Source of the DNA: Bdellovibrionales bacterium
GTDB lineage: Bacteria > Bdellovibrionota > Bdellovibrionia > Bdellovibrionales > UBA1609
NCBI GenBank assembly: GCA_050246815.1
Contig: JBFWVI010000001.1
Location: 35,433-99,432, forward strand
Length of the DNA: 64,000 nt
Reading direction: 5' to 3'
Both the position numbers and the translations under genes were made by a program. Each line of letters starts with the position of its first letter. Position 1 is the first letter of the stretch. Below the pieces are notes generated by a model. The model was given only the letters and a program-made list of their open reading frames with translations. It did not search any database and had not been told where the DNA came from. Shown here one piece after another: positions 28,211 through 32,856 of this stretch.

Positions 28211-28942
28211 CTAAAGAGGGAAGATGTTCTTGATCAATTCACTTTGGTGTCGAAAAAGTTCACGGCAGCCGACATCCGCAAGCTCGGTCATGGCGTTCAT
28301 TTGCTCGCGCGAGAAGGCTTCGCCTTCGGCGGTGCCTTGGATCTCGACAAAATCGCCCCGACTGGTCATGACAAAGTTCATGTCTGTGCTGCAGGCAAAA
28401 TCTTCATCATAGCAAAGATCCAAAATAGGTTTTGGGCCTTGCATGCCGACACTGATTGCCGCGACATAGTGTTTCAAGGGAAGAGTTTTGATGTCGCCAC
28501 GGTCTTTCATGAATTTGAGTGCAAAGGCCAATGCCACAAAACCGCCGGTGACTGCCGCCGTGCGGGTGCCGCCGTCGGCTTGCAAGACATCACAATCGAT
28601 CATCACTTGGCGTTCACCTAGGGCCTTTAAATCCACAGCAGCGCGAAGACTGCGACCGATCAAACGAGAGATCTCTTGGGTGCGGCCCGAGTTGGCGGCC
28701 TTTTCACGCTGCATGCGGGTGTGGGTCGAGCGTGGCAACATGCCGTATTCGGCCGTCACCCAGCCTTGCCCTGTGCCCTGCAGCCATTTGGGAGCTGTAT
28801 TTTCAACTGTGGCCGTACAAAAGACTCGAGTGTGGCCAAAACGAACTTCCACGCTGCCTTCGGCATAGCGGGCCACTTCGGGGATCAATTCCACAGTTCT
28901 TAACTGATTGTCTTTTCTTCCGTCTGCGCGCATGGCGGTCAC
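28211..28942 (-). CDS. rph: ribonuclease PH
   Basis: [42 protein letters not shown]. Confidence 0.97.
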
Positions 28943-29703
28943 TGTAGGCGGGGTGCCTGGGGTTTGTCCAATGATTCGTGATAACGGATCAGGCCTTCAT
29001 GAAGACTTTGCGCCACCAGTTGTTGATATTCGGCGGTGACCAATCTCAGACGCTCTTCAGGGTGTGATAAATAGCCAATTTCGATCAAAGCCGAAGGGAT
29101 GGTCAAATTACTGATCACAAAAAAAGGAGCTTGGCGAATCGATTTGGATTTGGCCTTATGGCCACCGCGCCAAGCCAGCTCCAAGGATTTGGCAAGTCTG
29201 CTGCTGGCATAAACCCTTTGGTTGCGGGCTAAGTCACGAATGATCAATTGCACTTCCGATGGCACGGCTGTTTCCGCTTCAAGCAGACCCCTTGCGTGGC
29301 CCTCATTTTCACGGGCGGCCAAATACATGGACTCTTCATCTGGGGGCAATTGGTTTTGAAAATAGATTTCAACGCCACGGGCTTTGGGGTCCGTGGACCA
29401 ATTGGCGTGAATACTCAGCAGCAAATCACCCTTGGCCTGTTCGGCCCGACGGACCCGCTCGCCAAGGTCTAAAAATTCATCGTTTCGGCGGGTCATATAG
29501 GCAACGAAGCGGCCGTCTTCTTTCAACCGCTCATACAGCATTTCGGTGACCGACAAAGTGATATGGGATTCTTTGCTGTCCGCCGCATGAGCACCTTCGT
29601 CTTTGCCGCCATGGCCCGGATCCAAAATGACTTTCAAAGGGGCGGCGCCGCTTTCGATTGCGAAAAGCATGAAAATGGTAATCGGTAAAACCTTTGCATT
29701 CAT
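28939..29703 (-). CDS. N-acetylmuramoyl-L-alanine amidase (Amidase_3)
   Basis: DPGHGG, SIHAN, LIEIGY; signal peptide from MNAKVL. Confidence 0.92.
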
Positions 29704-29796
29704 TCTGTCTAGAATACCGTGAGGCGCGGTGTTCACGGCAGACCAGGGACTTTGAATCTCGGCAAACGGCTTGGGCTTTTCGGTGGTCAAAAGGCG

Positions 29797-29836
29797 AAAA
29801 AAAAGCGACCTGGGGGTAAGGAGGGGACCAGGTCGC
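29797..29836 (-). terminator. intrinsic terminator
   Basis: 9-bp perfect stem GCGACCTGG/CCAGGTCGC, 14-nt loop, then T8. Confidence 0.8.
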
Positions 29837-29851
29837 CAAGGGGGGGATACC
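29797..29851 (-). ncRNA. candidate sigma54-dependent small RNA (~55 nt)
   Basis: bounded by a consensus sigma54 promoter and an intrinsic terminator; C-rich; contains no ATG. Confidence 0.55.
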
Positions 29852-29861
29852 CTTAGTACTA

Positions 29862-29877
29862 AGCAAGTGAGGTGCCA
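29862..29877 (-). promoter_or_regulatory. sigma54 -24/-12 promoter
   Basis: TGGCACCTCACTTGCT = TGGCAC-N5-TTGCW. Confidence 0.75.
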
Positions 29878-30184: not shown

Positions 30185-31402
30185 ATGAACAAACTAAATT
30201 GGGTGATTGTCTTACTGTTGATAAGCCCCCTGGCTTTTGGCCAGAGCCGCTACCATGACCTACTTGTTGCAGATCTTGAAGACGTCGAAACCGACATGGA
30301 AGATGCGATGTCGGATTCTGAGGCTGCACGCGAAGGTGCAAAGGCAGCAAAAAAACGGGCAGAACAAGAACGCCGCAATCGTGAAAAAGCCAAGGCCGAG
30401 GCCAAGGACGCCTCGAGCAAAGCCCGCGTCAAAGAACGTGAAGCCAAACTGGAAATTAGCAGTGCCGAACGTGAAATCGAACGCGATCGCGCCGAAACCA
30501 ACCGCTTGGTGGGCGAAAAAACCGCCTTTGAAAATCAAATCCTCAAATTGGACAAACAGATCGCGGATTACAAAGCCAAGGTTGAAAAACAAAAAATGGA
30601 TCGCGAAGCCGCGCAAAAAGTGCGTGATGAAAAACGCGACCACGCTGCTGAGCTGATCAAACAAGCGCAACTGCTTGAGGAAGAAGTGCGTAAAAATAAA
30701 GATGAAGAACGCGCCGCTATTCAAGAGTTGGAAGCCGCCAAGAAAGAACAAAAACAGGCCGCCGAACGTTTGAAGCAGGCTCAAGACGACAACCAAAAAA
30801 CCGTGCGCAAGATGCAAGAGAAAGTGGATCACCTGAAAAATGAGGCCAACAAAGCCAAAGAGGCTGCGGCCCAATCTGAAACTCAGATGCGCGGTTTACG
30901 TCAAAATATGAGTAAACTTGAAAGCGAAACCCAATTGGCCGAGGTGGACGCGGAGCAGGCCAAGCGTCGCTCGGAAGAAGCCGGAGTGCGTTTGACTGAG
31001 CTCAAAAACAAAAACAAAACCAAAGCGGCCCAATTGCAATCGCGCAAAGCAAACGCTCAAGCGGTCATGGTGACTGCCGAAGATCGAGAAGCGTCGAAAA
31101 AGGTCGATTTGGCGGAGAGTCAGCAGGAAAACGACAATCTTGAAGCCGCCAGTGACAGCGGCAAAGTGAAAGTGCAACTGCAGCGTAAAGAGCCCAATGT
31201 CACACGCAAGCTTTCTGTGAACTGCTCGTTGTTAGATAAGCCAAGTCTGAGCGCCAAAGTCATCGGTACACGCCGTAAGGGGATGCAGCTTAGCACCGAG
31301 TCGGTGAATAAAAGCTGGGCTCGGGTCCAATCCGATAACAGCCAGCGTCCTGGCTATATGCCCATGTCTTGTTTCGAGGGCCGGACGCCCTCGATGCAGT
31401 GA
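30185..31402 (+). CDS. secreted long coiled-coil protein with C-terminal SH3-like domain
   Basis: signal peptide, ~300 aa E/K/A/Q-rich helix, LLDKPSLSAKVIG...SWARV...GYMP. Confidence 0.75.
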   Translation: MNKLNWVIVLLLISPLAFGQSRYHDLLVADLEDVETDMEDAMSDSEAAREGAKAAKKRAEQERRNREKAKAEAKDASSKARVKEREAKLEISSAEREIERDRAETNRLVGEKTAFENQILKLDKQIADYKAKVEKQKMDREAAQKVRDEKRDHAAELIKQAQLLEEEVRKNKDEERAAIQELEAAKKEQKQAAERLKQAQDDNQKTVRKMQEKVDHLKNEANKAKEAAAQSETQMRGLRQNMSKLESETQLAEVDAEQAKRRSEEAGVRLTELKNKNKTKAAQLQSRKANAQAVMVTAEDREASKKVDLAESQQENDNLEAASDSGKVKVQLQRKEPNVTRKLSVNCSLLDKPSLSAKVIGTRRKGMQLSTESVNKSWARVQSDNSQRPGYMPMSCFEGRTPSMQ

Positions 31403-32081: not shown

Positions 32082-32693
32082 TTAGTGGGTGTAATTGCGT
32101 GAGCCGGGCGGCGGAAAACGGCAACCTTCGGGGTGGTAAACATATCCTTGCCGCAGGTCCATCAACACCAATTCTAAAGCACCATTTTCGCCTTCGGGAC
32201 TCAGGCTGGCGTGCAGTTGATCACCTACATAACTGGATTCAGCGCCTTCTTGTTGAACCAACTTAAAGATGCGACCGTCTTCGATCGATAGACAGGCCAG
32301 GTCATTGCCTGAGGCCACGGCCATTTGTAAAAGAAAGACCAAGGCCAAATGGCTATTCTGTTTCAGACCTTCAATGGTGCTGGCCATGCGGGCTTTTTGG
32401 CGAAATTCGTGTCGTGATTTACACAGCTCGCGAGCGGTGTCGCGGGACATGGTTTGATTCTCAGCGCGGAAGATCCAAAATTTTGCGGGTTCGCGCAGGC
32501 GTTCAATGCGGATTTCATCGGTACCGACTTGTGTCACGCGCAAACGCTGGTCTCTTTTGTTTGCCGCGGGCATCGCTGAAGCCTGGGGCCTGCTCATGCA
32601 CAATGTGAGTGGCTGGGTGGTGAGGGCTTCTTGGGCCCACGATATAGGGATGGTCGCCACCAGGAACGTTAAACCCGCGATGAACGCTTTCAT
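32082..32693 (-). CDS. hypothetical secreted protein
   Basis: GGAGG RBS before MKAFIA, signal peptide. Confidence 0.6.
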   Translation of the reverse strand: MKAFIAGLTFLVATIPISWAQEALTTQPLTLCMSRPQASAMPAANKRDQRLRVTQVGTDEIRIERLREPAKFWIFRAENQTMSRDTARELCKSRHEFRQKARMASTIEGLKQNSHLALVFLLQMAVASGNDLACLSIEDGRIFKLVQQEGAESSYVGDQLHASLSPEGENGALELVLMDLRQGYVYHPEGCRFPPPGSRNYTH

Positions 32694-32856
32694 TCCGCCT
32701 CCGCCTCGACTCGCAAATAGAGTGAGCAACCCTTGTGCCAACAAAACGGGCACGAGCAGCGTGTCATCGAGGGGGCGGGCCGCATAGGTTTGAAGCAATT
32801 GCCTAGCGGGATAAGAAAAATTGCAGAAAGCGCAAAAGGTTTGGATCCAGGCGGAT

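Follow-up and report, generated by a model that had tools for sequence, protein, structure and literature searches.

A conserved family of short, predicted sigma54-dependent RNAs with two exposed C-runs in the order Bdellovibrionales

Several bacterial small RNAs (sRNAs) act through C-rich loops. According to the accessible portions of the respective reports, the stand-alone RepG RNA of Helicobacter pylori uses a C/U-rich terminator loop to pair with a G-repeat in an mRNA leader (PMC8295292; PMC8687705), CJnc190 of Campylobacter jejuni, a host that lacks Hfq and ProQ, represses an RBS (ribosome-binding site) rich in G through a C/U-rich loop (PMC8687705), and the 6C/B11 RNA of Actinobacteria binds many mRNAs through its C-rich loops with no chaperone (PMC6486639). 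In Myxococcus, a predatory relative of the organism considered here, the sRNA Pxr is made from a predicted sigma54 promoter and gates a life-cycle change (PMC5568312, as far as the available text goes). In Bdellovibrio bacteriovorus, which belongs to the same order as the present organism, APsRNA1-7, merRNA and a 261-nt RNA from the hit locus have been described.

We analysed a 64,000-nt stretch of DNA from a Bdellovibrionales bacterium (the window), in which a predicted sRNA combines the unpaired, conserved C-rich loop of the RepG/CJnc190/6C class with a sigma54-type promoter. By sequence and structure, it is a member of none of the RepG, CJnc190, 6C or Pxr families. RepG targets a long phase-variable repeat, whereas the candidate sites here are G-runs of 5-8 at the RBS, and the RNA consists of a 5' C-run and a single hairpin, is preceded by a sigma54-type promoter and belongs to another phylum. 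For CJnc190, the available text of PMC8687705 describes RNase III processing and an antisense partner, while here promoter and terminator lie flush with an RNA of mature size. 6C is a multi-loop RNA of Gram-positive bacteria with its C-runs in hairpin loops (accessible part of PMC6486639); the present element matches no Rfam 15 family at the gathering cut-off, the best weak match being ncS54 (21 bits against 43, E 0.13, terminator part only). Pxr, as portrayed in the available portion of PMC5568312, is 108 nt long, has three stem-loops, is processed, lies beside nla19 and is confined to the Cystobacterineae. None of this applies here, and the likeness to Pxr drawn by an initial annotation of the window does not extend beyond promoter type, since this family has a single hairpin, 51-63 nt and other neighbours. 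The B. bacteriovorus sRNAs measure 98-655 nt and their coordinates fall outside the Bd2697-Bd2698 gap, as judged from Table 2 of PMC3627812 and the accessible part of PMC3818213. A literature search, which covered few subscription papers, returned no description of the family and no paper on sigma54-driven sRNAs in Bdellovibrionales; the locus could stand unnamed among the 23 sRNAs and 46 non-coding start sites that the TCOL browser (PMC4987935) counts for B. bacteriovorus, or in the supplements of PMC3818213. The family is thus apparently undescribed.

The predicted sRNA occupies 29797..29851 on the minus strand (55 nt, counted from the predicted +1 through the last U of the tail), its +1 at G29851 being placed by sigma54 spacing, and a covariance model of the family matches 29796-29851 with 66.3 bits. 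A sigma54-type -24/-12 promoter, TGGCAC-N5-TTGCT, lies at 29862..29877 on the same strand. Within the RNA, a C7 run at 29840..29846, unpaired in the predicted fold, forms a first candidate seed and is followed by a terminator hairpin (29804..29837) with a 10-bp stem (29837-29828 with 29813-29804). The 14-nt C-rich loop of this hairpin (29814..29827) contains CCUCCUUA and is the second candidate seed, and the T8 tail of the intrinsic terminator spans 29797..29804. A T-tail is also present in the homologues inspected, although at least four T were required by the search pattern. On re-reading, this minus-strand layout from 29877 to 29797 agrees with that first reported for the locus. The RNA is predicted to fold as a single hairpin, with the 5' arm left unpaired (-17.4 kcal/mol, z -3.7, none of 200 shuffles as good); a generic terminator scan missed the hairpin because the maximum loop it allows is 8.

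Downstream on the minus strand, an N-acetylmuramoyl-L-alanine amidase gene (28939..29703; Pfam Amidase_3), the usual downstream neighbour, starts 94 nt after the tail and is followed by rph and rdgB. The 320-aa ORF from 29901 is likely to be a chance extension over the element; full-length ortholog matches of the amidase have open frames of 238 to 335 aa. The usual upstream neighbour is a divergent plus-strand gene (30185..31402) for a secreted coiled-coil-like protein, for which a Pfam search gave no match and only a weak C-terminal SH3b lead was obtained.

A search of 41 relatives gave 32 amidase matches; 30 loci were read, and in about two thirds the unit of promoter, C-run, hairpin and tail stood upstream of the amidase orthologue. 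A search pattern composed of a C-run (4 C), a stem, a loop gap and a tail (4 T), with the promoter left out, was run on a genome collection and yielded 109 loci, of which 93 were classed as Bdellovibrionales-type and 16 as unrelated terminators, a split by record title and loop that was made after seeing the results and by which the 16 were dropped before counting. A covariance model built from 91 sequences detects the family in 110 of the 151 Bdellovibrionales genomes searched, including 95 of the 125 of high quality, nearly always once per genome; all 13 Bdellovibrionales families sampled are represented, and the genome analysed here has a single match. Across the phylum, the model found the family in 21 of 23 in-order genomes as against three weak matches (E 0.004-0.008) in 127 genomes of other orders. 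These figures are undercounts, as illustrated by genome G038, where a match at E 0.74 turns out to be genuine, having the promoter and the two C-runs. Three weak second matches that had no promoter (L177, L183, L188) were dropped before the counts, as were duplicates (142 reduced to 132), and the loci examined come from about 70 of the 110 model-positive genomes. A second copy occurs in a direct repeat of about 530 nt in L192 (1460-2130), which may have arisen in assembly, and what look like paralogues, each with its own promoter, are found in two further genomes (L209 and L210; L087 and L139). The initial annotation had let its proposal stand or fall with conservation in relatives, and on this point the outcome is decisive: promoter, stem and loop are kept together across the order, and the element is a conserved, order-wide family in Bdellovibrionales.

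Among 67 distinct model-aligned members, double-sided changes occur in 8 of the 9 modelled stem pairs, and 99.5% of paired cells are complementary, compared with 90.4% in shuffles (0/500 as good) and 39-57% in slid controls, in an alignment that is itself fitted to the structure. A stem pair is swapped from U-A to A-U in three families. The RNA has a median length of 56 nt (5-95% range 51-63) in 125 distinct members with a promoter. The 5' arm holds at least 5 C in 119 of these (the search pattern required 4 C), and the loop holds at least 4 C in 118, a feature that the pattern did not demand; loops are almost free of G (25 of 1384 loop letters).

The match of the loop to an anti-Shine-Dalgarno (anti-SD) sequence, which was emphasized when the locus was first described, does exist in this genome, as its 16S rRNA ends in ...GAUCACCUCCUUUCU, but it is not what defines the family: CCUCCU is present in only 30 of the 125 loops (CCTCCTT in 30 of 91 in the pattern-derived set). 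The anti-SD match of this genome is one clade's version of a C-rich loop. CCUCCU is the loop motif of Cuckoo-type or anti-SD-mimic RNAs, and a classification as such was rejected on the same count. Similarly, the 12-bp palindrome pointed out at 29852..29863 is there, but a palindrome of at least 10 bp is found in only 4 of 125 homologues; no meaning is supported for it and we judge it incidental. Given that CCUCCU and the palindrome are rare while the C-rich arm and loop are near-universal, the signature of the family is its two exposed C-runs. In one clade (L058, L082, L117, L192, L197, L206, L211) the 5' arm is longer, with extra C-runs, and the loop has shrunk, an arrangement that suggests the main seed may lie in the 5' arm. 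A small peptide product was considered and rejected, as an ATG is found in only 22 of the 125 RNAs, and then after the C-run.

The promoter motif was left out of the search pattern and was never searched for. Nevertheless, GG-N10-GC at -24/-12 stands at a fixed distance from the RNA before 123 of 131 distinct family members, and it precedes 88 of the 93 Bdellovibrionales-type pattern matches as opposed to 1 of the 16 unrelated ones. The C-run begins at +3/+4 in 80 of 125 homologues. The strict promoter pattern has 8 copies in this 3.4-Mb genome, and most of the 7 others lie shortly upstream of a likely start codon. RpoN is encoded here, together with 13 strong matches to sigma54 activators, and is found in 144 of the 151 genomes of the order, so that a correctly spaced -24/-12 motif coexists with the sigma factor and the activators needed for a sigma54-dependent unit.

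Six loci (L040, L048, L116, L128, L196, L201) keep both C-runs and the hairpin with no sigma54 motif, possibly as a result of a promoter switch; loss of RpoN was rejected as the explanation, because each of the 6 genomes checked for it still encodes RpoN. Two candidate activator sites, TGTC-N9-GACA (at most 1 mismatch; 43 of 123 loci, with a peak 60-80 nt before the -24 box) and CCCA-N5-GAACC (29 of 123 loci), were counted 60-260 nt upstream of the promoter, and relatedness of the loci may inflate these counts; neither site is found in the window. The window does contain a second strict sigma54 motif (32725-32740, minus strand), followed after some 45 nt by an ATG that has a G-rich site. The motif falls within an ORF call (32082-32798), and the true start of the encoded protein is likely to be this later ATG.

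Runs of at least 5 G were counted in this genome from gene calls made in the analysis, with a caller whose small GGGG bonus biases starts; they occur in the -20 to -1 region of 168 of 3004 called genes. The corresponding counts are 27 farther upstream, 16 within coding sequence and, for C-runs, 18. Among about 3000 called genes, duplexes of -16 kcal/mol or better are predicted at 88 start regions for the 5' arm and 51 for the loop, as compared with 24 (arm) and 9 (loop) farther upstream, and with 17 and 7, respectively, within genes. This excess is weak evidence for targeting, because any C-rich RNA favours SD regions and because of the caller's GGGG bonus.

Four conserved genes, named by Pfam, were hand-picked from the duplex ranking as target candidates. 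At least 5 consecutive G precede the start in 13 of 24 orthologues of fliW and 9 of 11 of a DUF2203 gene (13/26 and 16/22 under another start rule and window), and in 9 of 29 luxR orthologues. The controls gave 0/93 for rph, 0/60 for rdgB, and 0/23, 0/21 and 0/19 for three others; one of the control genes is what we take to be csrA. As a target, dnaG was rejected, having such a run in only 5 of 29. On these counts, fliW, whose product FliW is a CsrA antagonist, and the DUF2203 gene would be the leading target candidates, the LuxR-type regulator being a weaker one. This small LuxR/GerE-type helix-turn-helix gene (L223-L252; G000:C43:3172) is present in 30 of 30 genomes of the order searched, and in most it has a near-invariant junction of leader and start. 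This conserved stretch could be bound by CsrA or serve as a control element of some other kind.

G-run RBSs occur throughout the phylum, with no tie to the presence of the sRNA. In a co-occurrence set of 80 hand-picked genomes, the median G-run RBS ratio was 0.40 with the RNA (n=28), 0.31 in the order with no match (n=26; this group holds at least one undetected member, G038) and 0.44 in other orders (n=26). Genomes that have no model match still show G-run sites at fliW, DUF2203 and luxR, although at least one of these genomes carries a divergent member. Moreover, cognate sRNA-target duplexes gave no convincingly better fit than swapped ones in 8 tests: nominal p values of 0.003 and 0.047 include the genome used to pick the candidates, and the trend in two loop tests was the reverse of that expected (p 0.97, 0.997). 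These negative results weaken the case for pairing but do not exclude it, since a pure C-run seed is not expected to co-vary with its targets.

We consider it fairly probable, and the best explanation of the element, that it encodes a sigma54-transcribed, Hfq-independent, trans-acting sRNA that represses mRNAs with G-run RBSs through its C-runs. RNA polymerase carrying sigma54, gated by one of the genome's activators, would transcribe the stand-alone unit into an RNA of about 55 nt; its two exposed C-runs would pair with G-run RBSs unaided by Hfq or another chaperone, and pairing would lower the translation of a set of mRNAs. No match to Hfq was found in this genome, which is 99.1% complete. 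Repression of G-rich RBSs by the candidate seeds is plausible, and pairing with G-rich sites is favoured by the precedents of RepG, CJnc190 and 6C, whose C-rich loops do so. This correspondence in layout with known base-pairing RNAs also speaks against a role of the C-runs in titrating a protein (poly-C-binding, KH-type, or Rho) in place of mRNAs. Such a decoy would account for the conservation of run length and C content with no specific seed, for the absence of target co-variation and of co-occurrence with G-run RBSs, and for a stem whose very sequence is conserved beyond the needs of termination. For the loading of Rho, however, 55 nt that are mostly hairpin would be short, and we regard a protein decoy as unlikely, if the least unlikely of the alternatives. 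A broad, low-specificity damper that vies with the 16S anti-SD for many strong G-rich sites, or a sponge for other G-rich RNAs, in place of a few dedicated targets, seems to us rather improbable. It fits with the hundreds of start regions that are predicted to pair at -12 kcal/mol or better (327 for the arm, 343 for the loop), with the CCUCCU-bearing loops and, by a crude heuristic, with signal-peptide-like N-termini being commoner among genes with at least 5 G at the start (85 of 168) than among those with AGGAG/GGAGG starts (213 of 547), but three quarters of the members lack the anti-SD motif and a few genes keep their G-runs across families while the controls do not.

The remaining readings place the function in cis and are constrained by gene order. 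Among 95 loci with enough flank, the gene downstream of the unit is the amidase in 65 (59 by ORF call and 6 by tblastn), the coiled-coil gene in 12, a convergent gene in 12 and another gene in 6. This frequent linkage to the amidase is what favours an attenuator or leader for amidase-rph-rdgB, as suggested in the initial annotation, of which a pyrG-like slippage sensor would be a variant. The other 30 loci, however, have no amidase behind the unit, the distance to the amidase match varies from about 30 to 500 nt, and in genus g58 promoter, RNA and tail are all preserved in a unit that is turned round between the same pair of genes. Folds of the read-through transcript contain no competing structure (a central stem pair has a probability >0.9 in 112 of 121), the C-run and the C-loop cannot pair with each other, and the +1 base is not a fixed G-run. 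Because the unit inverts and moves alone, the attenuator is largely refuted, and we give it hardly any credence. The RNA could also be a by-product of a unit in which a sigma54 holoenzyme roadblock, or a short terminated transcript, acts on the divergent promoter or insulates the next gene. Linkage to the coiled-coil gene in 66 of the 95 loci (divergent in 54) points in this direction; the orientation to that gene is nevertheless flipped in 12 loci, the gene is not seen at 29, and two conserved C-runs and a loop of 10-20 nt are left unexplained, making this highly unlikely. Having its own promoter and terminator and inverting or relocating by itself, the unit has the properties of a trans-acting sRNA gene. 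Thus, the proposal of a stand-alone sigma54-type gene for an sRNA of about 55 nt with an exposed C-rich loop is supported by conservation, covariation and inversion, and the family very probably represents real sRNA genes.

The family is likely to include a laboratory predator. For B. bacteriovorus HD100, the accessible supplement of PMC3627812 lists the attack-phase gene Bd2697 with its sequence from -50 to +1. This string opens with the 3' stem strand of the family and T9, in the form seen in g58; Bd2699-Bd2700, of which Bd2700 is rph, lie just beyond this region in the same source. On the strength of this string and the nearby rph, the unit is likely present in HD100 in its inverted form, some 30 nt ahead of the start site of Bd2697 (2,619,972 in PMC3627812), making the family directly testable in this species. 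Bd2697, which is likely the counterpart of the gene at 30185-31402, is specific to the attack phase (1022 versus 11 RPKM). In HD100, rpoN is expressed in both phases (available text of PMC3627812), so the phase of sRNA expression is not predictable. The HD100 unit is absent from the 8 sRNAs of PMC3627812 and is not the hit-locus RNA, as far as the accessible parts of that paper and of PMC3818213 extend. Contigs of standard RNA libraries from 8 runs cover the downstream gene and show no discrete transcript of the element: two end inside the T-tail, five stop 25-90 nt before reaching it, and the only one to run through the hairpin is 16 kb long and takes in the whole region. In such data a missing contig is no evidence either way.

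At 55 nt, the element is a defined unit that could be deleted to probe sigma54 and post-transcriptional control in a predator for which the phase switch has found little explanation, and it would make a very small model of C-runs that target G-runs unaided by a chaperone. Whereas no homologues outside B. bacteriovorus are reported for the described attack-phase sRNAs in the available text of PMC3627812, this family spans the 13 families sampled. It is a speculative and, in our estimation, unlikely extension that a sigma54 activator fires this two-seed poly-C RNA across the order to silence G-run-tagged mRNAs, such as those of fliW, freeing CsrA, and of the LuxR-type regulator, and so helps to flip the cell between attack and growth. 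If true, the RNA would switch the predatory life cycle at the post-transcriptional level throughout the order, as a Bdellovibrio counterpart of myxobacterial Pxr.
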